Notes: generated by a model not told the origin, from the sequence alone. A stretch of DNA of 64,000 nt from an uncultured bacterium (GCA_963707655.1 OY970172.1:1-64000); one strand, 5' to 3'. Shown: positions 204 through 61,004, counted from the first letter of the stretch. A program made the numbers and translations.

Positions 204-1106
204 TTATATCTGAATACCAGTTAAACGGTTGAATTCGTCAACGAAGCGTTGAGCCGCTATTGTGTTGTATAATTTTGTAGGTTCGGTGTAACCGAAATCT
301 TCTTTGTATTCATCTATTCGGCGTAGATTTACCAATTCATCTGCGTCAACTGACTCGAGCGTCGCGGTAAAAAAGAAGTCAGGAATATAAGATATGCCAT
401 CGGGAATATAGTCGAAAGCTCTATTATTTAAATTCATTTCTTGCGCGTACAATTCTCCTTGCCGTGTGTAAGAACTTAAGCCCGTTTCTTTGTTTGTCTT
501 CTTAAGTTTTCCCAATTTCAGTGACCATTGAAGTCTGATAAGCATTTGATCGGTCATTCATTGACATGCGATTTGTCTGTGATCTGGCTAGAAGGTAAGA
601 AACAAATGCATCGAATTCATCAAGCATTGATTTGACCTTATCTTTCTCTGCTTGTATCTCTGCTTTGTGTTCTGGCTGGGCGAGTAGCATACGCGCATAT
701 TCCTCATCCAGTTCGTCTTTAGCATTTTTTGCCAGAGGTGCTTGGTGTTTCAACACGTAGTCGATGTCGACTGGTTGGGCTGCCAGCTGGCGGTATAATG
801 CTGCCACATAAGCGGGCAAATTTCTTGTTAATGCAGTAGCTTTTGCTTCTTCAAGTGACGGCATGGCAACAACTAATTCTTGTGGCGTTGGTGCAAGGTC
901 GGCAAGTCGTTTAAAATCGTGCGCGTAATAAAATGCGTCTCGCGCCACTAGAAAGTCCGCCCATTTTCCAAGCAACAAATTCTGTTCAGGTGTCCTTCCT
1001 GTGTTGGTCTCTATCTCTTGTGCGGGCGTGATTTTTATATCCATCGCAGTTAGTGAGGTGGCTATAGCGAATAGGCGGAGAGTACAATGAATTTGAATTT
1101 TTGCAT
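204..1106 (-). CDS. Exported hypothetical protein, probably one gene split by two single-base indels (ORFs 502..1044 and 204..557 plus upstream signal peptide)
   Basis: AAGGAG RBS then ATG at 1106 gives MQKFKFIVLSA; adding one base near 1075 continues LFAIATSLTA-MDIK in frame with ORF 502..1044; ORFs 502..1044 and 204..557 overlap at a GGGAAAAC run. Confidence 0.55.
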
Positions 1107-1202
1107 AGAAAGCGCTCCTTTTTAAAAAATTTTAAACTTTTTCTTCTGCGTGCTGATTATAGCAGCAGCCTAAAATAATCAAAAGAAAATTTAAAGATCT
1201 TT

Positions 1203-1637
1203 TTATGCAAAAAAATCTCTCATTTCACAGGCTATCGCGCTAGCTGCGGTCAGAAATGTTAAGCACAGCATGCTTGTGCTCGCAAAGTCTGTAGCGAAAG
1301 CAAAAGGCTCTGCGTTGTCAGAGTTCGCTGAATGATGGTCGTGTGAGTCCTGATAAAGATGGATATATCGTCTATTTTTATCGGGACTCTGTATTTGAGC
1401 TGCGTAATAATTTCTCTGTGGCCGCTTGGGTCGGACAGCAGATGCCGTGAGAATCCCTTTGAGTGGCAATACACTTTTCTGATCACTATTGGCTTGAGCA
1501 TCCGTTTGCGGAATGATTTCGACTTGAGCGGAAAATCGAACTTGTTTTATAGGAGGTTTTGTTTGATCATCATCCATTGCAAGAAGAGAAAAAGAAAATA
1601 AGCAAAAAACAAATAAAAATGAGTTGTGATTCATCAC
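1203..1637 (-). CDS. Exported hypothetical protein with C-terminal hydrophobic segment
   Basis: 144-aa ORF, signal peptide ...FSFSLLA-MDDD, hydrophobic C-terminus. Confidence 0.65.
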   Translation of the reverse strand: MMNHNSFLFVFCLFSFSLLAMDDDQTKPPIKQVRFSAQVEIIPQTDAQANSDQKSVLPLKGILTASAVRPKRPQRNYYAAQIQSPDKNRRYIHLYQDSHDHHSANSDNAEPFAFATDFASTSMLCLTFLTAASAIACEMRDFFA

Positions 1638-1645
1638 ATATTTCC

Positions 1646-1777
1646 CTATATTTTTTCTTGCGGATAAGAAGTTATTCTTTTGTGTGGAGAATGGGTAAAG
1701 CTCAATCCGGCCACCAAGAGTAATACGAGCCCGGAAACAAGCAATAATGAAAGACGATGTTTATAAATTTTCTTCAT
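1646..1777 (-). CDS. Small (43 aa) membrane or exported peptide, not in ORF track
   Basis: Manual translation MKKIYKHRLSLLLVSGLVLLLVAGLSFTHSPHKRITSYPQEKI*; AGGA upstream; ends 8 nt before the next ORF start. Confidence 0.45.
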   Translation of the reverse strand: MKKIYKHRLSLLLVSGLVLLLVAGLSFTHSPHKRITSYPQEKI

Positions 1778-2100
1778 AAATCCTGTTTAAATAGATGAAA
1801 AATATTATGATCTTATATATAAGGCTAGCGGTTTCTTGTATTCGGTCAAGAAAACGGGTTGCATGTTTTCTGTAATGCCCACTTTACGTGACAATTGTGG
1901 CAAAACATTTCAGTTTGAATTTCATAATCAGAGGCTGACAATGTCGCATAATGCGCTTCTACAGGAATTTTTGCATGCTTTAGCGCCCCGCACGCTTGTT
2001 TAAATTAAATTAATCTATATAATTAATTATAATATTTAAAATTGTTTCAAAGTTGAAATATATACCTCGTGTTTTTAACGAGACCATTTTGGAGGATCTT

Positions 2101-2853
2101 ATGAAATCAATGCAATTCACTTATTTAATGCTCGGCGCATTGTTACTGTCTGCCCCATTAGCAGAAGCTAAACGCGGCATGGCTTTCCAGTGGCCGACCG
2201 GCTCTTATCAGGAAACAAAACATGGAGTGTCTATCAATGCTCGCCTTCTTGATAAAAATGAGACGGCAGCCCTTTTTGATGGATATGGCAAGAGATTGAT
2301 TCAGGGAAGAAATAGCACTATTCCTTTGAAAATTGAGATCATCAATAATAGCGATGCGCTTATGGTCTTGAAAGAAAGCGATATCACCTTGCCGTTGGTC
2401 AATATCAATCCCTCAGCATCCTGGAATATAGGCAGCATAGTCAGCACTGGCTTGTTTCGCCTTGTGGGCGGTAGCGTGGTTATAGCTCTTGGGTTACCCT
2501 TTGCGCTAGTGGGCGGGGTATTGGTTTCGACGGCCATTGTTGGCGCTGCTTCACCCTACGTCATTGCGGGGCCTTTGATTAGTGTTGGGGCATTGTTTAC
2601 CGGTGTTGGCTCGTGGCTGTTTAGCCCTTTCAACACACCGGTCGCACAAAAAAATATGCAGGATCAAACAGAGCCGATCGCCATTTATCCTCAAGAAACC
2701 AAAGACATTATCTTATTTACTTCAGCAAGAACATTACAACCCTTTTCTGTGAGCATGAAAAATCTTGCGGGGCATAAAACAAGCTTCGCCGTGAATTTTG
2801 ATGGCGTCGCTCCTGAAAGAGAAGTTACCTGGATGGGTGCACGCGCTGCCTAA
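2101..2853 (+). CDS. Exported/membrane hypothetical protein with Gly-rich hydrophobic hairpin
   Basis: GGAGG RBS at 2091-2095 before ATG 2101; signal peptide ...APLAEA; long hydrophobic stretch mid-protein. Confidence 0.7.
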   Translation: MKSMQFTYLMLGALLLSAPLAEAKRGMAFQWPTGSYQETKHGVSINARLLDKNETAALFDGYGKRLIQGRNSTIPLKIEIINNSDALMVLKESDITLPLVNINPSASWNIGSIVSTGLFRLVGGSVVIALGLPFALVGGVLVSTAIVGAASPYVIAGPLISVGALFTGVGSWLFSPFNTPVAQKNMQDQTEPIAIYPQETKDIILFTSARTLQPFSVSMKNLAGHKTSFAVNFDGVAPEREVTWMGARAA

Positions 2854-2915: not shown

Positions 2916-2923
2916 TTGGCTTT

Positions 2924-21468: not shown

Positions 21469-22781
21469 ATAAATTGCCACGCGTGGTACTTGTTGGGAGA
21501 ACTAATGTTGGTAAATCAACACTCTTCAATCGTCTTTCTGACTCAGTCAAAAGCATAACTCTTGATTATGAGGGAGTTACCCGCGATTTTATAAAAGACA
21601 CTATTTTTTGGAATGATCGTTCGTTCGAATTGATTGATACCGGTGGTGTGAGTCTGCGTAAAACTACTGATCCTATCATGCAAGAAGTGCGTGACCGTGC
21701 ACTTGATCAATTAGAAAAAGCTGATGTTGCCCTTTTTGTCTGCGATGGCAAAAGTGGTTTAGTGCCAGAAGATCGTGAGATTTCAAAATTGCTGCACAAG
21801 CTTAACAAAACCGTAATCTTGGTTGTTAACAAGGCTGATGTTGCCGTTGCTCAAGAGCATCGCTACGAATTTGAGCGGCTCGGTCATAAAACGTTGGTAG
21901 CAATTTCTGCTCAACATGGAACCGGCATTTCTGAATTGTTTACCACCATTATCGGCTTAATTGGCAAATCAACAGGGATAGAAGAAGAAAAACCACTGTA
22001 CCGCGTTGTATTGTTGGGCAAACCGAATGTGGGTAAATCATCATTAATGAATCTTTTACTCAAGCAGGAGCGCTCGATCGTTTCTGACGTCGCAGGAACC
22101 ACACGCGAAGCTATTTCTGAAAAAGTTACTTTTTATCAGGAAGATCTACAAATTACCGATACGCCGGGAGTGCGTCGTCAACGCTCGGTGAAAGAGCAGA
22201 TTGAAACATTGATGGTAAAGAGCTCTTTGCGTGCCTTAGACAAAGCTGATATTGTGCTTCTTCTGGTTGATGCGAGTCAGGGAGAGCTGGCTGATCAGGA
22301 ATTAAAATTAGCATTTTACGCTTTTCAAGAGCAGTATAAGGCATTGATTATTATTTTTAATAAGCAAGATCTTATGGAGCATGAGATACACGAGCGTTTG
22401 ACTATGGATACTGACCAATACCAATTCTTGTTGCGCAAAATTGAGCAACTATCTATTTCATGCAAAACAGAAAAGAATATCGGTAAAGTTTTTCCTTTAG
22501 TAAAAAAAGTATGGGAACGCTATTCGCAGCAGTTTTCTCCTGAAGAACTTACGATTCTTTTTAAAAATGAATTAGATAAAAAGCCTCTGTATCATAAAAC
22601 GATGCCGTTGCTGGTGTATCGCGTGCAACAAATCAGCACGGCACCAATTACTATCGCTCTTACGGTGAATACACCGGATTGGTTTGGACCGAGCCAACTT
22701 ACTTTCTTTGAAAATCTCATGCGTGCTGCATACGATTTACAGGGCGTCCCTGTTAAGTTTGTTTTGCGTAAGCGCAATTAG
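21465..22781 (+). CDS. der: Ribosome biogenesis GTPase Der (EngA)
   Basis: Two G-domains: GRTNVGKS/DTGG/NKAD and GKPNVGKS/DTPG/NKQD; KH-like C-terminus. Confidence 0.97.
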   Translation: MNKLPRVVLVGRTNVGKSTLFNRLSDSVKSITLDYEGVTRDFIKDTIFWNDRSFELIDTGGVSLRKTTDPIMQEVRDRALDQLEKADVALFVCDGKSGLVPEDREISKLLHKLNKTVILVVNKADVAVAQEHRYEFERLGHKTLVAISAQHGTGISELFTTIIGLIGKSTGIEEEKPLYRVVLLGKPNVGKSSLMNLLLKQERSIVSDVAGTTREAISEKVTFYQEDLQITDTPGVRRQRSVKEQIETLMVKSSLRALDKADIVLLLVDASQGELADQELKLAFYAFQEQYKALIIIFNKQDLMEHEIHERLTMDTDQYQFLLRKIEQLSISCKTEKNIGKVFPLVKKVWERYSQQFSPEELTILFKNELDKKPLYHKTMPLLVYRVQQISTAPITIALTVNTPDWFGPSQLTFFENLMRAAYDLQGVPVKFVLRKRN

Positions 22782-23173
22782 GGTTTGCTGAGAAAAGCCA
22801 AGCGAGCCGTGAGAGCATTAGCTTTGATTTTAAAGTTAAGTATCTCTTGTTCAAGTTCATCAGCCGTTACACCAGCTTCATTTCTTAATGCTGTATTTGC
22901 ACCATGTTGAATTAACAGTGCTTGCATTCCTTTATTGGTAGCCGCAGCATGAAGCGGATATCCCCCTCTATACTGACTGCCGGTCGGCATGGGAATATTA
23001 GGATCTGCCCCCATTTGTAACAATCTTTCAACGAGTTCGACGTCCTGAGCTATGCAGGCTGTGTGCAAGACAGTTAACCCGTTGCTCGCTTTATTATTAA
23101 TATCGCGTGTCATATTATCCATGCTATGGTTACAATGACATATGAATATAGATAACAAAAATAATTTTTTCAT
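22778..23173 (-). CDS. Exported ankyrin-repeat protein
   Basis: Signal-like N-terminus ...NHS-MDN; GLTVLHTAC...LLQMGADPN, GYPLHAAA...LIQHGAN. Confidence 0.85.
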   Translation of the reverse strand: MKKLFLLSIFICHCNHSMDNMTRDINNKASNGLTVLHTACIAQDVELVERLLQMGADPNIPMPTGSQYRGGYPLHAAATNKGMQALLIQHGANTALRNEAGVTADELEQEILNFKIKANALTARLAFLSKP

Positions 23174-23801: not shown

Positions 23802-25058
23802 TTAATTTGCCATTATTTTCTTAACATTTTCTTTAGCTGTTTCTATGGTCGTACTCATTATATGTTGCGAGTAAAATTTTTGATCGATAGATACGGCATA
23901 GTCATGGGGATTCGCTTCTTGAAAGCCAAAGGATTTATAGAAATTAATAACAGGGTTTGTTTGATAGTTTGCGCCATAAGCAGCTACCCACAACTCAACA
24001 GCGGTTACCGTAGTATCTTGATGCAATAGGTCAATCATGGCATGCATAAGTTGCTTGCCTACGCCCTTGCCGTGGTAGTTATTGTCAACAAATACTTTAG
24101 TTATACAGACTAAATGTTTTTTATAGCTGTGCTTTGGCGCTTCTCTTTCTGCTTCTATAAGTCCAATCAATGTACCTTCGCTTTCTGCTGCCAGAATCCA
24201 AAGATTTTGCTGCTGACCCTGCTTTTTCTGCGCCAATTCTAATCGCTCTTTCCAGTGATCAATGAGTAGTCCTTCCTCATCTTCTGGAGCGATTGCAAAA
24301 ATATGTGGCTCATTTTGCTCAAGCGATCTTATATTAATTTCTCTGTAAGGATACATGTTGTCGAGGTCAAGCGTGATTATATTAATGTGCAATTGTTGTG
24401 CTGCGGGCATAACAATTTTTGCAGCATCGTTTCGCTTGATCTTCTTGCTTGCTTGCACGGCTTTTTGTATGCACGTTTTCATGCAATAGTGGGGGTGGAA
24501 TACGTGATCTACTTGCGACGCATGTTTATGAGGATTTACTACCTCAAAGCCAAATTTTTTATAAAATTGTATGGCCGCAGGTTGGTTAGAGGATACGCGT
24601 AAATCGAGCGCGGTTATGGTTGGATCTTGGGCCAATAGACTGATCATCTCATTCATAAGCTGTGTACCTATCCCCTGTTTTTGATGCTCTTTATCAACAA
24701 ATATTTTAGTAATAGTTGCCACATGTTTTAAATATGATTCGTTGGTCCATTTTCTTTGCGCCTCTATAAAACCAACAAATTTATTGCCAGCTTTAGCGAC
24801 AAGAATCCATAAATTTTGTTGTTGCCCTTGTTTTGGCGTTGCTTTTTTTACTATTTTTTTCCAATACAGGGCACATTCTGGTAAATCTTCCGTAGTCATG
24901 GCAAAGATGTATGGTTCGCTTTGTTCGATTGTTTTTTTATTAAGCTCTTTATATTCTTGATAGTCGGCTGATACAAGATTAGCTATAGTAACCGTACCAG
25001 CAGCCATGCATTGTATTAATAGAGCAGTTATTAACAATATATGCTTGCTAAGATTCAT
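23802..25058 (-). CDS. Signal-peptide protein with tandem duplicated GNAT acetyltransferase domains
   Basis: Two repeats sharing QGQQQNLWIL, ITK.FVD, HQKQGIG/YHGKGVG acetyl-CoA loop and FYK.FGF. Confidence 0.88.
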   Translation of the reverse strand: MNLSKHILLITALLIQCMAAGTVTIANLVSADYQEYKELNKKTIEQSEPYIFAMTTEDLPECALYWKKIVKKATPKQGQQQNLWILVAKAGNKFVGFIEAQRKWTNESYLKHVATITKIFVDKEHQKQGIGTQLMNEMISLLAQDPTITALDLRVSSNQPAAIQFYKKFGFEVVNPHKHASQVDHVFHPHYCMKTCIQKAVQASKKIKRNDAAKIVMPAAQQLHINIITLDLDNMYPYREINIRSLEQNEPHIFAIAPEDEEGLLIDHWKERLELAQKKQGQQQNLWILAAESEGTLIGLIEAEREAPKHSYKKHLVCITKVFVDNNYHGKGVGKQLMHAMIDLLHQDTTVTAVELWVAAYGANYQTNPVINFYKSFGFQEANPHDYAVSIDQKFYSQHIMSTTIETAKENVKKIMAN

Positions 25059-36176: not shown

Positions 36177-36917
36177 ATGAAGCGTACGGTAACAGGGCTA
36201 TTCTTTGCTCTCATAATGTTTTCATCATCATTGTCTATGCATGCAATGGAAGAGAAGCGGGCAAACCAGGTTTGGTTGATTGTAGCGATGGCAGGGGGTG
36301 TCGTGGGAGGCTGGATTTTTACCGCACTCAAACAATCTGTTGTTGAAAAAAAACTGACAGACTTACAGAAAAAATATAAAAAATTGAAAGCCGATAAGCC
36401 TGACTTAACAAAATATGTTACGCAAGAAGCCTTTGAAGCACACAAAAAACAATCCGCAGAACAGCTTAGGCATGATAAAGAAGACCATAAAGAGCTCTTG
36501 GCCACCTATGCCGCACTCAAGAAGAAAATTAAGAATCTGGATGGAGAAATTGAATCACAGCAGTCAGATCAGTATTCTGGGAGATTGGCCGCGAGTAGTT
36601 CTCTTGCGCGCAGTAATTCTACTCAACATGTGCGTCCGGCTACTGTTACCGCTTCAGATAAAAAAGCAAAACGAAGATCTTTGGGTCTGCCCAACAGAGC
36701 TCGTAACGCCGAGCAGGACGAGATTTCAGTGCACTTTGCTGCTCCGCGGAGTCAATCTCAGCATCGTGTGACTCATGGCGGCGGTCGACAATACACACCG
36801 CTTCTTGAAGAGCCGTCACCACCAGACTCATCACGGCCGGCAGAGTTGTCACCATCAAGTTCATCGCGGTCATCAGAATCATCAGAGCCATCGTCAGAAG
36901 AATCGCACTCATCATGA
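36177..36917 (+). CDS. Exported hypothetical protein: signal peptide, TM, coiled coil, Ser-rich tail
   Basis: ...SMHA-MEEK, hydrophobic VWLIVAMAGGVVGGWIF, heptad region, S/P/E-rich C-terminus. Confidence 0.75.
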   Translation: MKRTVTGLFFALIMFSSSLSMHAMEEKRANQVWLIVAMAGGVVGGWIFTALKQSVVEKKLTDLQKKYKKLKADKPDLTKYVTQEAFEAHKKQSAEQLRHDKEDHKELLATYAALKKKIKNLDGEIESQQSDQYSGRLAASSSLARSNSTQHVRPATVTASDKKAKRRSLGLPNRARNAEQDEISVHFAAPRSQSQHRVTHGGGRQYTPLLEEPSPPDSSRPAELSPSSSSRSSESSEPSSEESHSS

Positions 36918-37030: not shown

Positions 37031-37645
37031 ATGAATATCAAGTATACACGCTTGGCGCTGGCGCTCGTATTGTGTGCATCATCAAGCTCTTATGCAATGC
37101 AAGAATGGATGAAAAACAAGGAAAGAGCTGCTTTGGGAGTATTGTCAGGAGCAACTCTCTTTTTGGGCGGCGTCACCTTCTATCTGTGGAACAAAGTAAA
37201 CAAGCTCACTCAGGTTAGTCAGGTGGTGGGATCTCACCAGCTGGGAGTTAATGCTAAAGCAGCGCATCAAGAGTTACTGAATGATCATGAAGAGCGTCTG
37301 GATGCGCTTGAAGCTGCATGTGCAAACAATAGCATATCCCATAATGATAGTTCACTTCAAGCGGTCATTCGCGACTATGGCCAAGCATTGAATGATCAAA
37401 AAGAACAACTTGCCAAAATAACAGCAACACAAACCAATCATGCAAGTCGCATCAAGCAGCTGTTTGAAGAGCACGATGGTTTAGCTGCTATGGTTACAGC
37501 AAGCCATGATCGCGTTTACTATAAAAAAGCGACAAAGAAAGGCGAGACTGGTATCAATATGTGGAGAGCAGACGAGGAAGATAAATATAAATCAGCATCT
37601 GAAAAATTTGCCGAGCTGATCAAGAATCGCCCATCATCACTGTAA
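37031..37645 (+). CDS. Exported hypothetical protein: signal peptide, TM, coiled coil
   Basis: ...SSYA-MQEW, hydrophobic ALGVLSGATLFLGGVTFYLW, heptad region. Confidence 0.75.
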   Translation: MNIKYTRLALALVLCASSSSYAMQEWMKNKERAALGVLSGATLFLGGVTFYLWNKVNKLTQVSQVVGSHQLGVNAKAAHQELLNDHEERLDALEAACANNSISHNDSSLQAVIRDYGQALNDQKEQLAKITATQTNHASRIKQLFEEHDGLAAMVTASHDRVYYKKATKKGETGINMWRADEEDKYKSASEKFAELIKNRPSSL

Positions 37646-39084: not shown

Positions 39085-40227
39085 TTACTTGCGATCAGCG
39101 GTTTGGCGATTTACAAGGCGCTCAAGCGGTGTTGTGTGCATTGTGCCGTCTGTATCTTGGAATCGATAAAAAAGCATGCCGTTGCTTTTTTCGGTAATGC
39201 CGAGTTTAGTAAGGATGTTTGTTTTTTTGGGTGTTGTGCTCTCCATAATGAATCCGCGCTTAAAACCTCGTTTGCGTATGGTGTTCAGAGCTTTAACCAT
39301 GAGATATTCATCCCAATTATAGTCACGGTACAATGGATTGACCTGTGGTATCCGTATAACATCCGGGCCGACATGCGCTATACGCGCGACGAGTTTCGTG
39401 TGATCAGGCGCCACATTTTTTTTCGCGTCTTCATATGCCGGATAAATCCGAGTTTCCGTTTCGGTAGTTTCGGTTTTGGTGTTGACCACGTGCCACAAGC
39501 GATTTTTCTTGCGTATAATGCGGCTCGTATCCCGATGATAACCAGACAGGTGGTCTACAGGATCTTCTGCATGCGCAAAGTCGAGCTTCAGAACTGCCCT
39601 GTTTGTTTGCGGGGAATATTTAGCAACTTTGAAGCCAAATTTATCAGTCATATCAGCAATGCCGGGAATGGTGCAGAGCCATGAGATTGGTTGGTTTTCT
39701 TCACCTTTGATAAGGTAGAGAGATGCCAGAATGAACTGGTCAATAAGGAGCGGTTGATCATCTACATCCTCTGTAAGCATGCATCGCCAATGTTGTCCAT
39801 CAAATTTTATGGTTGATAATGGCTCTTGCGTAGTTACCATGTTAGGGTCATTCTTTAAAGTTTTGAATAAAAGGACGTTTTTATTCGCGCGATGCAATAG
39901 AGCGTATTTCTCTTGATTAACAGAGATCTCGTATAGGTCAGCAGAATGCCCTATATCCGACCGTACAATATGTACTAATGGGATACCGGTTTCAACATCA
40001 GGACCATTTTCTTTTATCATTGAAGGAGTAGCATTTGACGACGAAGCCAATGGGCTTGGCGTGGCCGGCCTTAAGGGTACCACTATATCGGTATCTTCAT
40101 CTTCCGGCAAAGAACTTGGCGTGCCTGGTTTGCATATGCCGGCAAGTCTGGTAATTGCTCCGTCTGAATCCATTGATACGGCAGTATTGAATAAAAATAA
40201 TATGGGTAAAAGAGCTTTATAGTTCAT
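39085..40227 (-). CDS. Exported hypothetical protein with degenerate GNAT-like segments
   Basis: Signal ...TAVS-MDSD; Pro/Ser linker; DKFGFK and LMVKALNTIRKRGFKR...LTKLGI resemble GNAT C-terminal motifs. Confidence 0.6.
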   Translation of the reverse strand: MNYKALLPILFLFNTAVSMDSDGAITRLAGICKPGTPSSLPEDEDTDIVVPLRPATPSPLASSSNATPSMIKENGPDVETGIPLVHIVRSDIGHSADLYEISVNQEKYALLHRANKNVLLFKTLKNDPNMVTTQEPLSTIKFDGQHWRCMLTEDVDDQPLLIDQFILASLYLIKGEENQPISWLCTIPGIADMTDKFGFKVAKYSPQTNRAVLKLDFAHAEDPVDHLSGYHRDTSRIIRKKNRLWHVVNTKTETTETETRIYPAYEDAKKNVAPDHTKLVARIAHVGPDVIRIPQVNPLYRDYNWDEYLMVKALNTIRKRGFKRGFIMESTTPKKTNILTKLGITEKSNGMLFYRFQDTDGTMHTTPLERLVNRQTADRK

Positions 40228-40476: not shown

Positions 40477-43182
40477 TTACCAGCCATAGCTCATGCCGAA
40501 ATGCACTTCATACGGACTTTCATTTGGGCGCGGATCAAGCTTAAAGCCGACATCAATTTTAATCGGCATTGGCTGCGTCAGGCGTATGCCGGCGCCAACA
40601 GCATGGCGATAATCAAAATTATTATTGACAAAGAATTGCGCATTTTGTGCATTTAGATACGGGTTATGCCAACCGGCGCCGCCATCGTAGAAAAATACAC
40701 CCTTAATGCTCATGTCTGGTTGGATAGGGAACAGGAGCTCGGCATTTACCCATAAGGTGTTGCTTGCCCCGACTGAGTCCCCTTGTGGACCAATTCTAAA
40801 GCGCGGGCTTATTTGGCCAAAGAGATAACCGCGTACGCTTGAAGGACCACCCACGTGAAACAATTCACCGTAAGGAATTAGTTTGTTTTTGAGTGGATAG
40901 GCAAAGCCAAGATAATTGTGCCAGTGGAAGATCAGATCATATTCCCCAATCAGCGGAGTGTACCAGTGGAAATCCCAATCAAATTTGCCGTAGCTCAAAG
41001 CACCGCTGACCGGAAAGCCAACATTGGTGCGGACTACCCATGCGTAACCACGACTTGGGTGCATAGGGTGATTTTTCTTTTCCTGGCCCAAGACAACCCC
41101 GATCCAACCCAGAGAGCCGGGGGCGAAGAGTTTTTGCAGCATTGCATTATATTGCAACGCACCCAGAGCAAGATTTGTTAGTAGTGCAGGATCTTCATTT
41201 ATCACCGGTTGGGGCACGTTGACGTATGATATGCCGTCAAGTCCCAGGTTAAAACGCATAAAGATATCAGTAAAATATAATTGTTTAAACACTTTTACAA
41301 AGCCGGTGGTGAGTGATCCGCCGGTGCGTATTTCATTAATGGCATTGGTGAGTTGAAACTCTTCATATCCGGTGCGTTTGTGGTACGCATCAAAAGCGGC
41401 CATGATTGGTTTATCAAAGAGCCATGGCTGTGTAATGTTGAGGCCAAACGTTTTTTCTGATTTTGCAAAGCGGCCGGCAAGGTTCACGCTCACCCCATAG
41501 CCCATAAAATTGGTGTCATTCACGTTCAGTTCTGCAGACATCGCATCGGCCGGCGAAGTAATATTTGCGGTACCGCCATAGCCCAGCTGCATAGAAGCAT
41601 GTCCTGTTTTTGCCTCTTTAACGATCATGTCCAGATCTGCCAGATTTTCATCAATGCGGTTAATTTTCCAGTTAACTCCATCTCGCACTTCAAAGTATCC
41701 CAGGCTCTCAATGCGGCTTTTTGATTCTTCCATAAAATTATTGGTAATCAGCTCACCTTCAGTGAGTAGTATTGAGCGGCGAATAATTTTATCGCGCGTT
41801 TTTTTGTTGCCGATAATGTTGATACGGTTGAGATACACTTGCTCGCCAAGGTCTTGCACAAAGCTAATATTCACCGTTTTTGTGCTTGGGTCAGGTAGTA
41901 TCGACGGCTCAATAGAGGCAAAAATATAGCCGCGGTTTCCCCAAAAATATTCAAGCATTTTAATGGAATCTACCACCTGGTCGCGTGAATAGATGCAGCC
42001 CGGCTTGAGCGGTATCCAGTTAAGCAAGGTTTGCGCGCTGACATCGCCGGCACTTTCTACACTTACTTCACCAACGGTATAACGCTCCCCTTCATCAATC
42101 TCAAAAACAAGCGTGATATTTTTGCATTCATCAAAATCAACCCGAACATCGATTACTTTGGCGCTGATGTAGCCTTCGTTTTGATACATTTGTTCAATCA
42201 TGTGGCGATCGGCAGCAATACGTTCAGGCTGATAAATGCCGGATTGATCAAGAAAGCCAAGGAGCCAGTCTTCACGTGAGAATATAACTGAGCGCAATTT
42301 TTTGCCGCTCATATTGTTGTTGCCGGTAAACTGAATGCGCTTTACCAATGATTTGGGATATTCACGAAAAGTAAAGGTTGCCGTTGCTTTATCTTCTTCA
42401 TCAAGGGTGAGTTGTGAATCGATATCAACAACCGTGTATCCTTTATCTGCATATAATTTTTTAATTTTTTTGCTTATTACCTTGAGCTCTTCCGGATCAA
42501 TCGCCGGCATTTGTGAGAAAGGAATTTTTGCTAAAATGTCTTTGGTAGCTATTTGCGAGTTGCCCACTAACTGATAATCTTTGAGAATTTTTTTTTCTTC
42601 TACAATAATATAAAGATTTAATTCATCCTCACCAATTGGTTCCACGTCGATTTCAATAAATCTGAAGCGTTTTAAATCATGATAGAGTCGTTTGATCAGT
42701 TCGCCGGTTTTTGACGGATCAAAGAGGGCCCCTTTCTGGAAAGAGACACGCGTTAAGATGGCAGCAGTGGGCACTTGTTTGTTGCCCTGCACAATAATAT
42801 CTTTAATGCGTCTGTTTTTCAGTTGCGCAAGAGCGGGATTGCTCATGGTTGCTGATTGCGGTGTGTTTGCCTGTTCTTCTTCTTGATCGTATTCATCTTC
42901 GCTGAGCAATCGTAAATCTTCTTCATCTTCTGGAGCATCGGGTGCGCTGTGAGTTTCTGTTGCGTCGGTTGTGTTATCGCTTTCCGTCTCATTCACTGCA
43001 TTGTCAGCTGGCAAAGGTTCATTGATAGATGCATTCTTTTCATCGTCGTAAATTAATTCTTCCGCTACCATTGCGCTGGTGGCTGCTTGCAGAGCATCTT
43101 CATCTGCATAAATAAAAGTGCAGCAGAGCAAGAAGATAATCCCCAAGCGGGCTGTCTGTGTGTTGTTTTGTTTCGATTTCAT
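40477..43182 (-). CDS. bamA: Outer membrane protein assembly factor BamA
   Basis: POTRA repeats (I.VQGNK, IQFTGN, INIIGNKKTRDKIIRR), VGG..SVRGY loop-6 motif, aromatic C-terminus. Confidence 0.93.
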   Translation of the reverse strand: MKSKQNNTQTARLGIIFLLCCTFIYADEDALQAATSAMVAEELIYDDEKNASINEPLPADNAVNETESDNTTDATETHSAPDAPEDEEDLRLLSEDEYDQEEEQANTPQSATMSNPALAQLKNRRIKDIIVQGNKQVPTAAILTRVSFQKGALFDPSKTGELIKRLYHDLKRFRFIEIDVEPIGEDELNLYIIVEEKKILKDYQLVGNSQIATKDILAKIPFSQMPAIDPEELKVISKKIKKLYADKGYTVVDIDSQLTLDEEDKATATFTFREYPKSLVKRIQFTGNNNMSGKKLRSVIFSREDWLLGFLDQSGIYQPERIAADRHMIEQMYQNEGYISAKVIDVRVDFDECKNITLVFEIDEGERYTVGEVSVESAGDVSAQTLLNWIPLKPGCIYSRDQVVDSIKMLEYFWGNRGYIFASIEPSILPDPSTKTVNISFVQDLGEQVYLNRINIIGNKKTRDKIIRRSILLTEGELITNNFMEESKSRIESLGYFEVRDGVNWKINRIDENLADLDMIVKEAKTGHASMQLGYGGTANITSPADAMSAELNVNDTNFMGYGVSVNLAGRFAKSEKTFGLNITQPWLFDKPIMAAFDAYHKRTGYEEFQLTNAINEIRTGGSLTTGFVKVFKQLYFTDIFMRFNLGLDGISYVNVPQPVINEDPALLTNLALGALQYNAMLQKLFAPGSLGWIGVVLGQEKKNHPMHPSRGYAWVVRTNVGFPVSGALSYGKFDWDFHWYTPLIGEYDLIFHWHNYLGFAYPLKNKLIPYGELFHVGGPSSVRGYLFGQISPRFRIGPQGDSVGASNTLWVNAELLFPIQPDMSIKGVFFYDGGAGWHNPYLNAQNAQFFVNNNFDYRHAVGAGIRLTQPMPIKIDVGFKLDPRPNESPYEVHFGMSYGW

Positions 43183-45552: not shown

Positions 45553-47184
45553 TCAAAGAGAACCGTTGCCTATTTTTTGCTCAAGCGCTTCTATTTTTGC
45601 ATTAAGCAGCGCGTATTGCTCGCTATGTTGTTGCTTCAAAATCTGAATCTCTTCTTGCTGCTCTTGCCAGCCTTTAAGGAGCAATGCATGCAGTTGGCTA
45701 TAGCGCACCGTTTCAACCGCGCCGTCTTGATTATGTACCACCAATTCGGGGTACACGCTCAGCACATCTTCTGCAATTAAGCCATATTGTTTTCTGTTGT
45801 CCGCATCGGTTTTATAGGTAAACTGCACCGGCTCCAATTGCATCAGTTGATCGCTTATTTCAGGCAATGATTCAATATTATCTTTATAGCGCCGTGAAGA
45901 TGAGGGGTTAATGAGTTGTCCGCTCGTAGTAATCTCTACGGTTGTTCCTGCCCCAACAACGCCGCTAATACCAAAAATATAGCAGGCAGTATTATCACTG
46001 TTGCCTATGTAAATGGTGTTATTATCGGTAGGTTGTCCTGCATTGTTAATGTATATGTTGTTGCCGTTCGCCAAGCTAGTATTATTTGATCCTGCTCCAT
46101 TGCTTCTGCTGACATCAAAACCAAGAACGGTTGAATTGCTTCCTCCTGCTGTTGCTGCGGTCCCAAGAGCAATGGAATTGCTTCCTGTTGCTGCTGGCAA
46201 AAAGCCAAGAGCAATGGAATTGAATCCGAATGCAACTGATCCCGCGCCTATGGCAACAGAGTTTTCTCCTGATGAGGTTGCGCGATTGCCCATGGCAATA
46301 GAGTTGCCTCCCGATGCACTCGATCCTAAGCCAAAAGCGCTGTCAGTGCCTCCTGATGCGGTTGTGCCGGAACCAACGGCAGTGTTGCCATTGGCATCGG
46401 TCACGATCAGCAGCATGGTAGTGCCACTGCCTGAAAATAATACTGTTCCGCCGGCTTGTGGGGATGCTTGGAATTTTACCGTTGCACCGGTTACGCTACC
46501 TTCATCGCCGTCAATAGAAGCGCTGCCGCCCACCGTCACCAATCCACCTGGGCCAACAATTAAAGGACTGCCCACAAATGGAGACAGATAAGAGAGGGTA
46601 AGGCTATCGACTACGGTTAAGTTATCTACCGTCAAATTTTCTATAGTCTCATTTTCAACAACAATAGTGCCGACGGTCAGATTCGTAAATACTGCACTGC
46701 CATCAACTAAAAATGCAGGGTTGCCCTGCGGATCATCAATCACTACCGGGCCGTAAAAAACTGCCGGTGTGCTGTAAGGGCGCACACGCGTTGCTGTTTC
46801 ATCTATGAATTCGCTTTCATCACCCATTAATGATTGATAATAAGCCCGTATGGCTTCTTGAATATGGCACAGCGTTTTGTTCTGTGTATCATCCATCGTG
46901 TAGTGAGTATTGATTTCATCAACCATGGCCATTGCTTCTTGCAGTGCCTGTTCCATGGCTTCTTTTTCCAATGTGTTATCTTGGCAGATCGCGGCAAATG
47001 CCGCGGGTGCGGTGCAATCACCATGTAATTCTCTGACTAGAGCGTGCAATTGCATTGCCGCGTGGCGGATATCGGCGCACATTTTTTCTTTTTGTAGGCA
47101 TTCTTGGGTTGGCTCCTGCGCATCGTGGGCAAGGGTTGTACAGAGCGCTACGCTCATGAGCGTAGCAATAAGAAATTGCTTCAT
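45553..47184 (-). CDS. Exported fibre/adhesin protein with YadA-head-like repeats and C-terminal peptidase S74 intramolecular chaperone
   Basis: Signal peptide; 14-aa repeats (NSIAMG..ATSSG, NSVAIG, NSIALG); SSRRYKDNI...L.PVQFTYK...YGLIAEDV..VYPELV; terminal coiled coil. Confidence 0.85.
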   Translation of the reverse strand: MKQFLIATLMSVALCTTLAHDAQEPTQECLQKEKMCADIRHAAMQLHALVRELHGDCTAPAAFAAICQDNTLEKEAMEQALQEAMAMVDEINTHYTMDDTQNKTLCHIQEAIRAYYQSLMGDESEFIDETATRVRPYSTPAVFYGPVVIDDPQGNPAFLVDGSAVFTNLTVGTIVVENETIENLTVDNLTVVDSLTLSYLSPFVGSPLIVGPGGLVTVGGSASIDGDEGSVTGATVKFQASPQAGGTVLFSGSGTTMLLIVTDANGNTAVGSGTTASGGTDSAFGLGSSASGGNSIAMGNRATSSGENSVAIGAGSVAFGFNSIALGFLPAATGSNSIALGTAATAGGSNSTVLGFDVSRSNGAGSNNTSLANGNNIYINNAGQPTDNNTIYIGNSDNTACYIFGISGVVGAGTTVEITTSGQLINPSSSRRYKDNIESLPEISDQLMQLEPVQFTYKTDADNRKQYGLIAEDVLSVYPELVVHNQDGAVETVRYSQLHALLLKGWQEQQEEIQILKQQHSEQYALLNAKIEALEQKIGNGSL

Positions 47185-53875: not shown

Positions 53876-54289
53876 CTATGATTGCCAGGAAATCCCAAGG
53901 CTCGTATTAAGTTGACCCAGCATTTGCGGCTGGTTCGGCTGTGGGATCTCGTCTGGTGTATAAAATGTGGGATAGGCAAGGTTCAGGAGCTCGCTGCTGC
54001 CAGACAAATAGTTGCCTTCCGGCTCTGATCGAGCGTGTGATTCTGTATCGCTTGATTCTTGCCCTTCTAAATCGGGGCGCCATTTGTCGCGGGGTTTAAT
54101 AATTGCAATAGATGCCGATACTCCGAGCGCCGGCCTTTGTGTTGAAGATTCAAAGTTGCTGAGCGTGTATCCATAATGTAATTCTTCAGGAGACTCCGAA
54201 CGTGACGAGCCGGTAGATTTCAGGTCCATGCTTTGTATGTGTGCTACGGGCGCCATGAGTGCTATGAGTAATATGTATATGTATTTCAT
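53876..54289 (-). CDS. Small exported Ser/Pro-rich hypothetical protein
   Basis: Signal ...AHIQS-MDLK; low complexity. Confidence 0.65.
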   Translation of the reverse strand: MKYIYILLIALMAPVAHIQSMDLKSTGSSRSESPEELHYGYTLSNFESSTQRPALGVSASIAIIKPRDKWRPDLEGQESSDTESHARSEPEGNYLSGSSELLNLAYPTFYTPDEIPQPNQPQMLGQLNTSLGISWQS

Positions 54290-54544: not shown

Positions 54545-56198
54545 TCAAAACATGCCGCCCATGCCGCCCGGCATACCGCCACCCATTCCTGGATGTGCCG
54601 CAGGAGCATCTTTTTTCTCTTGCGGAAGTTCGCTGATGGTTACTTCTGTTGTCAAAAGCAAGCCGGCGATAGACGCAGCATTTTGAATTGCAGAGCGAGT
54701 TACTTTGGCAGGATCGATAATCCCTTCTTCGATCATGTTTACGAATGTACCGTTCTTCGCATCAAAGCCCATGTTAACATTAACATCTGCTTTTACTTGA
54801 TTTACGATGACCGATGCTTCAAAACCGGCATTGTCAACTATGATACGCATTGGTTCTTCAAGTGCGCGCCACACAATTTGTGCGCCCAATTTTTCATCGC
54901 CAACGAGTGTTAAAGCATCAACTGCTTTTTGTGCACGGAGTAATGCAACACCGCCACCGGCAACTATGCCTTCTTCAACTGCCGCTCTGGTAGCTGAAAG
55001 TGCATCATCGATGCGATCTTTTTTCTCTTTCATTTCAACTTCAGTTGCGGCACCCACTTTAATTACTGCAACACCGCCGGCCAGTTTGGCAAGGCGTTCT
55101 TGCATTTTTTCGTGGTCGTAATCTGAGCTGGTGTTTTCAATTTGCATTCTGATTTGTGCAACGCGGCCTTTGATTTCAAGCTCGTTTCCTTGGCCTTCAA
55201 TAATGGTGCAATTGTCTTTGGTGAGCACCACGCGTTTTGCAATACCAAGGTCATGCAAGGTCAGTGTTTCAAGTTTGAGACCAACTTCTTCAGCAATTAA
55301 TTTTCCGCCAGTCAAAATTGCAATATCTTCTAACATTGCTTTGCGACGATCGCCAAAGCCAGGAGCTTTTACCGCAGCAATATTAAGTGTGCCGCGTAGA
55401 CGGTTAACCACGAGAGTTGCCAATGCTTCGCCTTCAACATCTTCAGCAATGATGAGTAATGAGCGACCGGTTTTTGCAACTTGTTCCAAGATAGGCAACA
55501 AGCTTTTCATACTGCTGATCTTTTTTTCATAAATCAAGTATCAATGGGTTCTCAAGCTGTGTTTCCATTTTTTCTGTATTGGTTACAAAATAAGGGGAGA
55601 GATAGCCGCGGTCAAATTGCATACCTTCCACAACATCCAGCTCGTCGTGCATTCCTTTTGCTTCTTCAACGGTGATCACGCCATCACGACCAACTTTTTC
55701 CATCGCTTGCGCAATCAATTGGCCTATTTGAAGATCTGAGTTTGCAGAAATGGTTGCAACTTGTTCGATCTCTTTTTTACTGTCAACTTTTTTTGACATT
55801 GCTTTAACATGATCAACAACCGCTTCTACTGCTTTTTCAATGCCACGCTTTAATGCCATGGGGTTGGCGCCGGCGGTAACATATTTGTTGCCTTCGCGGA
55901 AAATCGCCTGTGCAAGCACTGTTGCAGTTGTTGTGCCATCACCGGCTACATCAGCAGTTTTGCTTGCCACTTCACGCACCATTTGTGCGCCCATGTTTTC
56001 TAACTTGTCTTCCAATTCAATTTCTTTTGCAACGGTTACGCCGTCTTTGGTAATTGCAGGAGCGCCATAGGAGCGTTCAAATATTACATTGCGCCCACGG
56101 GGCCCGAGAGTAATTTTAACTGCGTCAGCAAGGGTATCAACCCCTTTGCGCACTTTTTCGCGTGCCGGTGCACCAAATACTATTCTTTTAGATGCCAT
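54545..56198 (-). CDS. groEL: Chaperonin GroEL (single-base indel near 55535)
   Basis: [39 protein letters not shown] tail; two ORFs join at [13 protein letters not shown]. Confidence 0.96.
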
Positions 56199-57448: not shown

Positions 57449-58666
57449 TCAATAAAGCAAGCCTTCGGAAATCCAGCCTTGAATTACATTGGTTCTCATT
57501 TCCGGATCCGTTTGTTTCCAGCGGAGCGTCATTGTTTGGATGCCCGTCAGAGAAGGAGGATTAGCAACAAAACCAAATTTTTTAAAGAATTGAGTATTGT
57601 CCTTATCTAGTGTGGACAAATCGCCTTTCTTTGCAGGGTCAACCGTTACGCTATCATAGCCATTTTTTTCGAATTCGGCTAAGGCTGCGGCCATTAATGT
57701 GTCATCATCAATCGTCTTTGTGGGAAAATGAATGGGCTGTTGAGCATAGTCGTCTATGAATACTGATTCACGGTTCCATCCACACTCGCGCCATCGTATG
57801 AATCCTATTTTTTCTCCGCGATAAAATGCGCCAAATTCACAATAGTGAGGATCTTTTTTATATTTGATTACATTATTAGGCAGAGTTTTTAGCAATGAAT
57901 TTTTAACATCATACTCCGCTAAAAATGGAGAATTTCTGTCCAGATAGTGTATAAAGTGCTCATTGTTATTGGCGAGTGTTATAGGATCTTCATTGTTTTC
58001 AAAATCAAAGACTCGAAAGACAACAGATTCTTTTGTTGCCTCATCACCATCGACTCGTCGCGGTTCATATTCTGGTGATAACCGTTTCTCTATTGTTTCA
58101 TCTTTGAAATCGGTTGCACCAAGAACATTCCAAAAATCTCGTGTGGCTTCGCATCCCTGCGTGGGTTTAAAAATAACCCGAGGATACCCTTTTTTTTGGA
58201 ATTTTTGCATGGCATGCAGACATAGAGTAGAAGCGACCCAAGGGTCTAGATGGCCATCTCCTGTAAGAGGCGGTCGAGTGATCGAGCTAATGCATGGCAA
58301 TGTTTTGTCTTGCGTGGTGACATACTGATAATTGAGCTCTCCTAGTGGTGTGTGCTCTGTAGTGTAGCATGCGTCAAGGCGTGTATTGAGCGTAGCCTCT
58401 AGTTCTTCCGTGAGAAGACCTTTTCTCTTGAAGAACTCATAATCGTAGCGCACTTCAGCTTCTTTGTGGGGGGAGCTCACGTATTCTTCAGAGCGGCGCA
58501 GTTCTATTTTTCCGCGCGATTTCATACATGTTACAACTGCAGATGGTTTGGGCACTATTCGTGAAGGACAAAGTTCATGTGCTTCGGCTTCTGCGGGTAC
58601 ATCCATTGCATTGATGTGAAAAAATGTACTGAATGCTACGAGCGCTAAGCGCATAGTGGTTTTCAT
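57449..58666 (-). CDS. Exported hypothetical protein with two degenerate GNAT-like segments
   Basis: Signal ...HINA-MDVP; LHAMQKFQKKGY...DFWNVLG and LMAAALAEFEKNGY...FFKKFGF. Confidence 0.65.
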   Translation of the reverse strand: MKTTMRLALVAFSTFFHINAMDVPAEAEAHELCPSRIVPKPSAVVTCMKSRGKIELRRSEEYVSSPHKEAEVRYDYEFFKRKGLLTEELEATLNTRLDACYTTEHTPLGELNYQYVTTQDKTLPCISSITRPPLTGDGHLDPWVASTLCLHAMQKFQKKGYPRVIFKPTQGCEATRDFWNVLGATDFKDETIEKRLSPEYEPRRVDGDEATKESVVFRVFDFENNEDPITLANNNEHFIHYLDRNSPFLAEYDVKNSLLKTLPNNVIKYKKDPHYCEFGAFYRGEKIGFIRWRECGWNRESVFIDDYAQQPIHFPTKTIDDDTLMAAALAEFEKNGYDSVTVDPAKKGDLSTLDKDNTQFFKKFGFVANPPSLTGIQTMTLRWKQTDPEMRTNVIQGWISEGLLY

Positions 58667-59236: not shown

Positions 59237-59370
59237 AATATACCCCCAAATAATTAATTAAACATATACTTATTTTACCAATTCTATGATATTCAACAAG
59301 TCTGGCAAAAAATGGGTAAGCTATGATAAGCTCAAGGTCAATAAATAATTACTGATAAAGGAGATGTACC

Positions 59371-60024
59371 GTGGCCGATATTTATCCCTCATTACTCAAC
59401 CGCAATCTGGTCCAGCTTAAAGCTGAATTGCAGCGGCTTGATGAATACGTTAAAGGTTATCACATAGATGTTATGGATGGCCGCTTTGTACCCAACGTTA
59501 CCCCCGGTGTGGCAGAGGTAAATACTATAGCCAGTATGAGTATGCGTACTGAACATTGGGTCCATCTGATGGTCGATGATCCATACCATTATATACAATC
59601 ATTGCTGCTTGCCCCGGGCGGGACCGTAACATTTCACTTTGAAAGTAATTGTGATGCTGGAGACACTATTAAATCAATAAGAGAAAAAAAATGGAAGCCT
59701 TCGATAGCAATAAATCCAAAAACTGCCGTAGAAAGCATTCTTCCCCTTGTCCACCTTGTGGATCAAATTCTCATTATGTCTGTTGAGCCCGGTTATTCTG
59801 GGCAGGATTTTTTACCAGAAGCTATAAATAAAGTTGAGCTATTGGCCAGTTACCGCGCAACGGGCAAACTTAATTTTAGAATTGCTGTTGATGGTGGGAT
59901 CAACGCGAAAAATATAGGGATGCTTGCCCAAAAAGGGGTTAATGACTTTGCGGTTGCCTCGGCAATTTTTGCTACCAATGATGCAGTTGAAGCACTGAAA
60001 GAATTACAAGAGCGGATACGCTAG
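59371..60024 (+). CDS. rpe: Ribulose-phosphate 3-epimerase
   Basis: HIDVMDGRFVPN, VHLMV, MSVEPG.SGQ, VDGGIN. Confidence 0.95.
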   Translation: MADIYPSLLNRNLVQLKAELQRLDEYVKGYHIDVMDGRFVPNVTPGVAEVNTIASMSMRTEHWVHLMVDDPYHYIQSLLLAPGGTVTFHFESNCDAGDTIKSIREKKWKPSIAINPKTAVESILPLVHLVDQILIMSVEPGYSGQDFLPEAINKVELLASYRATGKLNFRIAVDGGINAKNIGMLAQKGVNDFAVASAIFATNDAVEALKELQERIR

Positions 60025-60027
60025 TTT

Positions 60028-60504
60028 TTATAGGTTTTGTAGTTTTGCTTCGTTTTCCGCTTGTGTAAACATTTTTCCTGCATGATATTCGGCAAGAGCG
60101 GTATGAGGATCACCGTCGCGCTCAAAATCAATCTTCATATTGGCAAAATAGGGCATCATGTGTGCGCCGAAGCGGCTATAAAAAGGAATTGAGCTGTTTG
60201 TGGGGACCCAGAATACTGTTTTTACCCCCTCATGTTTCATGTCGTCAAAGGCTCTAAGCAGCAATTGGCTGCCGATCCCATTTTTTTGATGCTTCTTTTC
60301 TACGTCTAATGAAACAACAAGCGCTGATCCTTGCTCATGTATGTCATATAGAATGTGAGCAGCCTCGCGCCCGTTATGATGTGCTCTGATAGCCATTGAG
60401 CCAAAGTTATTTTCTGTGGTGAATGTATACGTTGCTCCGGCTGATTGGATGCAAAAAACAAGTACGGTAATGGGGATTTGCGTTATGATAGATTTCATTT
60501 TCAT
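60028..60504 (-). CDS. Signal-peptide GNAT acetyltransferase
   Basis: LDVEKKHQKNGIGSQLL, IPFYSRFG. Confidence 0.85.
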   Translation of the reverse strand: MKMKSIITQIPITVLVFCIQSAGATYTFTTENNFGSMAIRAHHNGREAAHILYDIHEQGSALVVSLDVEKKHQKNGIGSQLLLRAFDDMKHEGVKTVFWVPTNSSIPFYSRFGAHMMPYFANMKIDFERDGDPHTALAEYHAGKMFTQAENEAKLQNL

Positions 60505-60551
60505 GGTTAACCTTCCAGATTTCCACTTGGGATAAATATTTTTCCTACATA

Positions 60552-61004
60552 CTATTCTTTTTTAATGCTCTGATCGTTGTTGTCATCAAAAGAAATAAAC
60601 ATCCAGTGACCATGAGATGATGCACCAAATCGTTTGTAAAAAGGTATCGTCTCTGGGGCAGCAACCCACGACGCGTGCTTGATGTTGTGTTCTTTCATGT
60701 GTGCGAAGGCCATGGAGAGCAACTGGGTGCCCAGACCTCTTCTTTGGTATTCTTCGTCTATATCGAGTTCGTACACCATCGCACAATCAGTTCCTTCATC
60801 ATATGCAATGTCATATGTTACGCCGCCAATATATTTTGATGTATCGTTCTTTAATCGTATGTCGATACTCGCGAGGTTTTTAGATTGTATTGTTTTTATG
60901 AAAGCAAATTCTGTTTCAATAGTGTGCTGCGGTGCAGCCATTGCGCACGCTTGCGTTTGGTAGAGGCACAGTATAGCGGTAATTAATGAGATGAGCTTTG
61001 TCAT
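60552..61004 (-). CDS. Signal-peptide GNAT acetyltransferase (tandem paralog)
   Basis: LDIDEEYQRRGLGTQLL, IPFYKRFG; ...QACA-MAAP. Confidence 0.85.
   Translation of the reverse strand: MTKLISLITAILCLYQTQACAMAAPQHTIETEFAFIKTIQSKNLASIDIRLKNDTSKYIGGVTYDIAYDEGTDCAMVYELDIDEEYQRRGLGTQLLSMAFAHMKEHNIKHASWVAAPETIPFYKRFGASSHGHWMFISFDDNNDQSIKKE

Follow-up and report, generated by a model that had tools for sequence, protein, structure and literature searches.

The window analysed here is a stretch of 64,000 nucleotides, bases 1-64000 of a single contig of 1,091,075 bases (OY970172.1 in GCA_963707655.1; 41% G+C) from the 88.6% complete genome of an uncultured bacterium, and it contains genes for exported proteins in which a methionine appears to stand immediately after the signal peptidase I site, at position +1 of the mature protein. 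An earlier note on this DNA had pointed to ten such junctions, mostly Met-Asp, Met-Glu or Met-Gln, on otherwise unrelated proteins and had proposed that they form a code for effector export. All ten are found in the sequence and their Met codons could be located; eight of the cases stand, one of them in a frame-broken gene and one in a doubtful gene, and the other two, both GNAT acetyltransferases, are likely not Met(+1) proteins. Six genes are sound and have a clean Met(+1): a 131-residue ankyrin protein (22778..23173, minus strand; NHS/MDNM, where the slash marks the apparent cleavage site; Met codon 23120-23122), an orphan of 246 residues (36177..36917, plus strand; MHA/MEEK, 36246-36248), three proteins without a Pfam family of 204 residues (37031..37645, plus strand; SYA/MQEW, 37097-37099), 380 residues (39085..40227, minus strand; AVS/MDSD, 40171-40173) and 137 residues (53876..54289, minus strand; IQS/MDLK, 54227-54229), and an orphan of 405 residues (57449..58666, minus strand; INA/MDVP, 58604-58606). 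The first orphan matched only itself, with no relative among 3143 candidates, and the second had no match in 60 relatives.

The gene at 502..1106 (minus strand, no Pfam family) is broken: its signal-peptide-like start at 1106, an ATG preceded by AAGGAG, meets a stop after 14 codons (TAG, 1064-1062), and the Met-Asp-Ile-Lys that follows ...SLTA lies in another frame, in an open reading frame at 502-1044. An indel repair had been assumed at this site; we found no support for a sequencing error, because two short contigs from public runs (X2 and X4, one study, depth about 2) cross it without a gap. The small open reading frame at 1203..1637 (minus strand; LLA/MDDD, Met codon 1575-1577; no Pfam family) is doubtful; it starts with a GTG at 1637, one codon ahead of an ATG at 1634, has a coding score of -3.2 and was not called by the gene caller. 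In the two exported GNATs, one a tandem RimI-like protein (23802..25058, minus strand) and the other at 60552..61004 (minus strand), the best site scored without regard to what follows lies two residues past the Met, which would then probably occupy position -2. A paralogue neighbouring the latter (60028-60504) has no Met at its site, and neither does a tandem-GNAT-like protein of genome G058 at the equivalent place of a look-alike N-terminus (judged by eye, unaligned). The envelope proteins of the window, namely BamA (40477..43182, minus strand, with a predicted mature start of Asp-Glu-Asp and no Met), CtpA, DsbD, a DUF4097 protein and a YVTN propeller, lack the motif, as had been claimed.

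Our study extended the count to the whole genome, using our own gene caller (1055 genes, with 510 in a loosely defined signal-peptide-like set, some of them false positives) and, throughout, cleavage sites from our own heuristic, not from SignalP. In the blind rule the score of a site ignores position +1 and everything after it. A tolerant rule yields false positives where Met is at -3 (for example, the MYA/A ankyrins of G058), and we therefore rely on the blind, strict and shuffle tests; it should be considered that the strict rule (M[DENQ]) and the [ASG][DE] class were set only after inspection of the data. The controls (958 kb) comprised E. coli, Acinetobacter, Sinorhizobium, Paracoccus, Ralstonia, planctomycete-dominated rpsB loci and genome G262. 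With the blind rule, 67 of the 404 signal-peptide-like proteins have Met at +1, which is 9.1 times background, against 3 of 132 in the controls, which are themselves at background (p=1.8e-6; our first-pass blind count was 68 of 440), and no other residue rises above 1.6 times background. This agrees with the excess over free-living bacteria expected in the earlier note. The motif [AGSC]M[DE] occurs within residues 13-35 of 61 of the 388 signal-peptide proteins, whereas 1000 within-protein shuffles gave a mean of 7.4 and a maximum of 17; among the other genes it occurs in 9 of 545, and in two or more of these the filter had missed a signal peptide.

The residue that follows the blind Met(+1) is also constrained. 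Asp accounts for 38 of 65 cases and M[DENQ], the start typical of NatB substrates, for 48 (Asp 38, Gln 7, Glu 3), whereas only 13 of 243 ordinary genes have Asp after their initiator Met. Acidic residues occupy +2 in 41 of the 65 proteins that begin with Met versus 72 of 323 that begin with other residues, and Leu, Ile, Phe, Trp or Tyr occupy it in 1 of 65 versus 77 of 323. The 63 M[DE] proteins (median 179 residues, 56 sequence families) have the basic n-region, hydrophobic h-region and small residues at -3 and -1 of Sec and signal peptidase I substrates, as judged by our heuristic; Leu, Ala, Val or Ile is at -3 in 50 of them, the residue at -1 is Ala in 38, Gly in 11, Ser in 10 and Cys in 4 (partly by selection), and the signal is 15-29 residues long (median 19). 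The junction signal is encoded at the protein level, and the codons at -1 and +2 of the M[DE] sites track genome usage. A DNA motif or a Kozak-like signal at the junction was considered and rejected: the codons are neutral and DNA conservation does not go beyond that of the amino acids.

The rule is unevenly distributed among classes of exported proteins. Of the 510 proteins, 47 were left out before counting for carrying three or more later membrane segments and one because it straddled a tile; the Pfam scan covered 450 of 462 candidates, its matches were sorted by eye, and 38 were set aside as cytoplasmic false positives. Under the tolerant rule, Met(+1) is present in 12 of 31 eukaryote-type proteins (ankyrin, WD40, C2H2), 90 of 265 without a family, 7 of 78 other enzymes and 1 of 38 envelope proteins, and the first two differ from the envelope class (p=1.4e-4 and p=9e-6), which is the enrichment in eukaryote-like and lineage-specific proteins that had been anticipated. 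When Met or [ASG][DE] is counted, a class set chosen post hoc, the numbers become 24 of 31, 129 of 265, 23 of 78 and 2 of 38, and with a matrix trained on Met sites a start of Met, Ala, Ser, Gly, Thr or Val is found in 17 of 20 eukaryote-type versus 12 of 26 envelope proteins (p=0.007). Eukaryote-type proteins without Met mostly begin with Ala-Glu, Gly-Glu or Ser-Glu, and among paralogues these starts interchange with Met-Asp within families; the code read earlier as Met-Asp/Glu/Gln is thus present, but it is wider than Met. Envelope proteins often begin with Asp, Leu, Tyr, Phe, His, Lys or Gln, which are destabilising starts in the eukaryotic cytosol. Secreted proteins with multiple C2H2 zinc fingers, all with Met(+1) (MV, ML, MG or MD), form arrays at contig positions 358647-364929 and 727109-730060 and are candidate nucleus-directed effectors.

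The relatives of ribosomal protein S2 of this genome are Babeliales/Dependentiae/TM6 records, and this kinship, together with the gene content, leads us to infer that its owner dwells in a protist. The described Dependentiae are intracellular parasites of protists and are very rich in proteins with signal peptides (PMC6561590, PMC4378268): in Chromulinavorax they are reported on 44% of genes and 78% of ankyrin proteins (PMC6561590), and in Babela on 79 of 126 ankyrin proteins, with type II secretion as the sole system detected (PMC4378268). To follow the rule across genomes we used a DNA proxy (start codon, three hydrophobic codons, small-Met-Asp/Glu), which gave 41 matches in our genome, 27 of them on our list. 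Over 80 Babeliales the proxy ranged from 0 to 84 matches and reached at least 20 in 20 genomes, among them every one of the five in family f11; reversing the pattern left 0-4 matches. Direct samples agree with the proxy: there are clear cases in G001, G010, G028 and G064 and no M[DENQ] case among 34, 61 and 12 proteins of G058, G059 and G030, respectively. In the ankyrin-rich G059, which lacks the membrane-anchored GNAT described below, 10 of 47 proteins have x-Pro starts, mostly in one ankyrin array (L125-L126; the starts are mostly LPA, MPK and IPA, and the position of cleavage is uncertain). An x-Pro start is another known way to block aminopeptidases and N-recognins.

Outside this phylum, the genomes sampled belong to the class of G077 (Alphaproteobacteria). 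Twelve of them that carry an ATP/ADP translocase all have the type VI secretion gene TssC and none has VirB4, which we take to be the profile of Holosporales; their order is assigned by inference, because ChpT was found in one of four symbiont-like members. In nine Holosporales-like genomes, strict M[DENQ] starts occur in 9 of 175 proteins versus 0 of 132 in the controls (p=0.006, with one probable mis-start); proxy density is 2.6 per Mb in 54 Holosporales-like genomes versus 0.8 in 22 others, and in-frame signal peptides were recognised by eye in 23 of the 121 listed matches of translocase carriers versus 3 doubtful ones among 29 in the rest. The Met(+1) proteins of this group include a leucine-rich repeat protein and a Myb-domain protein, the counter-example being one outer-membrane barrel; the Myb protein (L177:13649-14722, genome G270) combines a signal peptide, a Met-Asn start and a DNA-binding domain. 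These results suggest that Holosporales-like alphaproteobacteria have likely converged on the rule, although the signal is weak. A plasmid ankyrin search returned no useful set of protist symbionts.

A gene set for the Sec-dependent two-step delivery route suggested in the earlier note exists in this genome. It comprises gspC, two gspD, a PilM/GspL-like and a GspM-like gene (contig positions 881569-889981), gspF, gspG and pseudopilins (1043343-1048018), together with two gspE and a prepilin peptidase; T6SS TssC and VirB4 gave no match. The T2SSE, T2SSF, T2SSG and A24 matches exceed their Pfam cut-offs; GspC and both GspD are the best NCBIfam names yet fall under the equivalog cut-offs, the position of GspL is occupied by a PilM-like protein and the GspM match is weak. 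One gspE is frame-broken, probably through an assembly fault, because all four relatives have it intact and the contigs of related strains show single-base indel differences in this region. The Met-Asp proteins are presumed substrates of this type II secretion system. All seven Babeliales tested have two secretins, with 2-3 matches each. Signal peptidase I is encoded by tandem paralogues (730997-731989 and 732628-733602) that flank one unrelated gene; after its catalytic serine the second has Ser-Ala-Glu instead of Ser-Met-Glu, at a position that presumably contributes to the S1 pocket and that lies outside the PDB alignment seen.

A membrane-anchored, RimI/NatC-like GNAT adjoining truA is encoded at contig positions 891419-892000 (L102:8754-9332, minus strand of that locus). 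It is single-copy, occurs in 52 of 61 Babeliales genomes and in all 36 genomes of the family, and has 308 representatives at 50% identity with E values of 1e-10 or better, the named ones being TM6 and Vermiphilus proteins, so that Vermiphilus pyriformis, a cultured member, is among the carriers; a search of the ESM Atlas returned GNAT clusters only, with no taxa for the first match. A transmembrane segment is present in 125 of 149 homologues (107 N-in, 6 N-out), as one N-terminal helix with positive charge ahead of it in 107 of the 125 and the GNAT domain behind it, an arrangement that predicts a domain facing the periplasm. The model has a GNAT fold (pLDDT 93), and the acetyl-CoA motifs (R132-G-K, T160-R, N164, A167, Y171, G175-F) are kept in 71-100% of 147 homologues. 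N-terminal acetyltransferases make up 14 of the 15 best PDB profile matches, with Naa30, Ard1 and RimI favoured; the RimI profile gives 47.5 bits for a cut-off of 86.4. Seven RimI-like matches are present in six proteins of the genome, all with a signal peptide or an anchor and none above that cut-off, and the tandem GNAT of the window (23802..25058) is related to the anchored family (hhalign probability 96.8). The bacterium encodes its own candidate N-terminal acetyltransferase. Of the 54 genomes that carry the anchored GNAT, 26 have at least nine proxy matches, as against 0 of 10 that lack it (p=0.003 by genome, which is overstated), and every rule-rich genome tested has the enzyme. Its position beside the secretin genes is not kept in G010, G028 or G030. 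Neither pyruvate dehydrogenase E2 nor acetyl-CoA synthetase was matched in any of five genomes; therefore, acetylation would depend on acetyl-CoA from the host.

Other features of the genome were also recorded. Signal peptides occur on normally cytoplasmic enzymes without the Met rule, namely those of the nucleotide-sugar pathway, a glutamine synthetase, an adenylate kinase and a PyrE-PyrF fusion (contig positions 862264-879723, 789552, 1023353 and 540412), and on six AAA ATPases, one having three AAA domains (341073, 473115, 693490-697405, 1050371). Two secreted proteins with near-identical signal peptides and differing C-terminal nuclease-type domains (Ntox17 and colicin D) resemble polymorphic toxins (316142-318043 and 1006585-1008489), and a lone MutS domain V (MutS_V) is present on two signal-peptide proteins outside the window (70392-72551, 227909-229642). 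Within the window there are a lysophospholipase (PLA2_B; 5561-7441), a surface protein with a YadA head and an S74 self-cleaving chaperone domain (45553-47184) and an exported carotenoid-oxygenase-like (RPE65) protein (50235-51947). The window genes lon (four open reading frames, 12538-15012) and groEL (two, 54545-56198) are fragmented, as are gyrA and one gspE elsewhere, probably by assembly indels; a second, intact lon is at 846599.

Given the enrichment, the split between classes, the coding at the protein level and the gene sets that we observe, the explanation we tentatively prefer, while granting that it may well prove wrong, is that the Met-Asp junction is a protective N-terminus selected on cargo bound for the host. 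Signal peptidase I would cut before Met-Asp or Ala-Glu and expose that terminus, the type II secretion system would then deliver the cut cargo to the protist, and there the cargo would survive in the cytosol, its first residue not being a primary destabilising residue of the Arg/N-degron pathway. Protection is favoured because the allowed first residues escape that pathway, because Met is hardly ever followed by a bulky hydrophobic residue (1 of 65), and because two unrelated lineages with different secretion equipment show the rule. Eukaryotic acetylation is at its most efficient on Met-Asp and Ala-Glu termini. It is doubtful that host NatB writes such a cap, its main substrates being nascent chains still on the ribosome. 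The anchored GNAT could instead cap the termini in the periplasm with host-derived acetyl-CoA, by analogy with the glutaminyl cyclase that caps the termini of the Bacteroidetes Q-rule, a role that is possible but more speculative and, in our view, unlikely.

Several observations weigh against protection and against this writer. The rule is patchy, with eight or fewer proxy matches in 50 of the 80 Babeliales and in 28 of the 54 genomes that have the anchored GNAT, and by family the association of enzyme and motif is 5 of 13 versus 0 of 8 (p=0.06). Acidic residues at +2 and Ala-Glu starts are ordinary in Sec cargo. The rule is mostly absent from exported enzymes with a need for cytosolic cofactors (GlnA, nucleotide-sugar enzymes, AAA ATPases); the Met(+1) count in their class, 7 of 78, does not differ from that of the envelope (p=0.19), and many have degron-type starts. 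In the only testable orthologue pair (76 kb of G001 plus L001, one informative pair), a protein of 66% identity has Phe-Glu where ours has Met-Asp. In the Holosporales-like group, blind Met(+1) is 10 of 175 versus 3 of 132 (p=0.11), and the proxy density does not differ significantly from that of 10 small control genomes (1.7 per Mb, p=0.11). As for the enzyme, structural comparison ties N-terminal with small-molecule acetyltransferases (Z 17-19.6; Ard1 at Z 18.9, rmsd 2.0, 138 aligned, and GNATs of S. aureus and PA4866 at 19.6 and 19.2), the alphaproteobacteria sampled have no clear orthologue, and the 88.6% complete genome has no match to an AT-1/AmpG-type transporter, which leaves periplasmic acetyl-CoA without an explanation. 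In Plasmodium, a lumenal candidate N-terminal acetyltransferase was found not to acetylate exported proteins (PMC10038149), a case which warns, by analogy, that being in the right place does not make an acetyltransferase the writer.

The main rival, which could coexist with protection and which we consider possible though unlikely, is that the x-Asp/Glu terminus, capped or not, is an export address read by the type II system or by a periplasmic chaperone that sorts host-bound cargo from envelope proteins. Parallels exist in the xE/Q/D end of the cut Plasmodium export element (PEXEL) and in the +1 Phe of complex-plastid presequences. The class split (24 of 31 eukaryote-type versus 2 of 38 envelope proteins) would fit such an address, as would the 56 unrelated families that have only this feature in common and the secretins of all seven Babeliales tested; against this, secretins are also present in the motif-poor G030, G058 and G059, ankyrin-rich G059 has x-Pro starts instead, alphaproteobacterium G184 has a few Met(+1) proteins without a secretin match, and type II cargo is usually recognised by folded surfaces. 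In favour of an address, a +1 residue is described as a sorting signal in ochrophyte plastids (10.64898/2026.03.27.714854); against it, the Q-rule, the nearest precedent, is reported to stabilise instead of sorting (PMC5837995, PMC10653852; no sorting signal according to PMC5837995), which is a further reason why protection is favoured.

We regard as improbable that the Met is a relic, either the old start codon of host-derived, virus-derived or newborn genes that received a signal peptide or part of one widely copied module, even though the motif lies mostly on orphans, varies greatly between lineages, clusters in paralogue arrays (17 of 62 gaps between M[DE] genes are under 3 kb) and was lost in the one orthologue pair. 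Junction Met is followed by Asp far more often than initiator Met is (38 of 65 versus 13 of 243), DNA conservation does not exceed that of the amino acids, and a single copied signal module was rejected, since similarity over the 12 residues ahead of the site is not higher in M[DE] proteins (0.163) than in others (0.193). A specialised signal peptidase that prefers Met at P1' is very unlikely: the tandem genes, with Ser-Ala-Glu in the second, would suit it, but the motif is matched 32-67 times in G008, G016, G017 and G028, where one peptidase locus was scored, and not at all in G021, where there are two, and such a preference would explain neither Asp nor the Ala-Glu alternative; a dedicated paralogue, which does not track the rule across genomes, was thus rejected. 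Least credible of all is a second translation start giving a cytoplasmic isoform, a possibility raised in the earlier note. The ATG is in frame, and the broken gene at 502-1106 could be made in no other way, but a Shine-Dalgarno-like site precedes 0 of 63 internal Met codons, compared with 30 of 63 first starts and 135 of 2212 random deep Met codons, and dual starts are rejected.

In the Dependentiae, close to half of the genes encode secreted proteins of unknown fate, and an effector signal is not known for them. A mature N-terminus of two residues that splits eukaryote-type and orphan proteins from envelope proteins allows candidate effectors to be listed directly, and it makes testable whether the N-degron and acetylation rules of a host shape the Sec-exported effectors of bacteria inside its cells. 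Should the anchored GNAT turn out to be the writer, we would have an N-terminal acetyltransferase of proteins that works in the periplasm, a kind of enzyme that we did not find described in the literature searched. Likewise, no description of a Met-first motif was found, with most subscription journals outside the scope of our search.

The type II secretome of the Dependentiae (PMC4378268, PMC6561590) resembles our set in its many ankyrin and orphan proteins with Sec signals; in the main texts of both papers the word methionine is absent, and we found no +1 rule described. RimI, archaeal Ard1 and Naa30 are the best sequence matches of the anchored GNAT and have the same fold, but they are cytoplasmic, whereas our protein has a membrane anchor, its GNAT domain is predicted to lie beyond the cytoplasm, and its score does not reach the RimI cut-off. 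The eukaryotic NatA/NatB and N-degron pathways deal with the same termini, Met-Asp/Glu/Asn/Gln and Ala/Ser/Gly-acidic; host Nats are mostly co-translational, whereas here the terminus would form after export. The Q-rule of Bacteroidetes, as described in PMC5837995 and PMC10653852, differs in using Gln instead of Met (or Ala/Ser/Gly) with an acidic +2, in covering most substrates instead of about a sixth to a quarter with envelope proteins skipped, and in having glutaminyl cyclase as its writer, where we have a candidate GNAT known from its sequence. In our genome Gln at the blind site is at background (19 of 404), envelope proteins are not generally covered (Met(+1) in 1 of 38), and glutaminyl cyclase PF05096 has no match in the 88.6% present, the animal-type cyclase family not having been searched; the rule resembles the Q-rule in its working but departs from it in defining respects and is therefore not a member of it. 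Gln is the commonest +1 residue (11 of 31) in the control loci L036-L048, L052 and L055, mostly from Phycisphaerales and Isosphaera, which in this small sample is a Q-rule-like bias outside Bacteroidetes. The PEXEL of Plasmodium, with its xE/Q/D consensus, likewise places an acidic residue or Gln second. It is also alike in that a protease bares a new N-terminus on host-bound cargo and acetylation takes place in a secretory compartment (PMC10038149); unlike our case, it belongs to a eukaryote and depends on plasmepsin V and an upstream RxL, whereas here the sites are ordinary signal peptidase I sites, aliphatic-x-small from -3 to -1 in the 63 M[DE] proteins, with Arg not among the common residues. 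It is a long shot, but one worth stating, that the Babelota have a counterpart of PEXEL, in which the peptidase would expose Met-Asp or Ala-Glu, an N-terminal acetyltransferase dedicated to this task in the periplasm would cap it with host acetyl-CoA, and the capped end would both license type II export and let the effector pass for a host protein, with Holosporales-like symbionts independently reaching the same termini.

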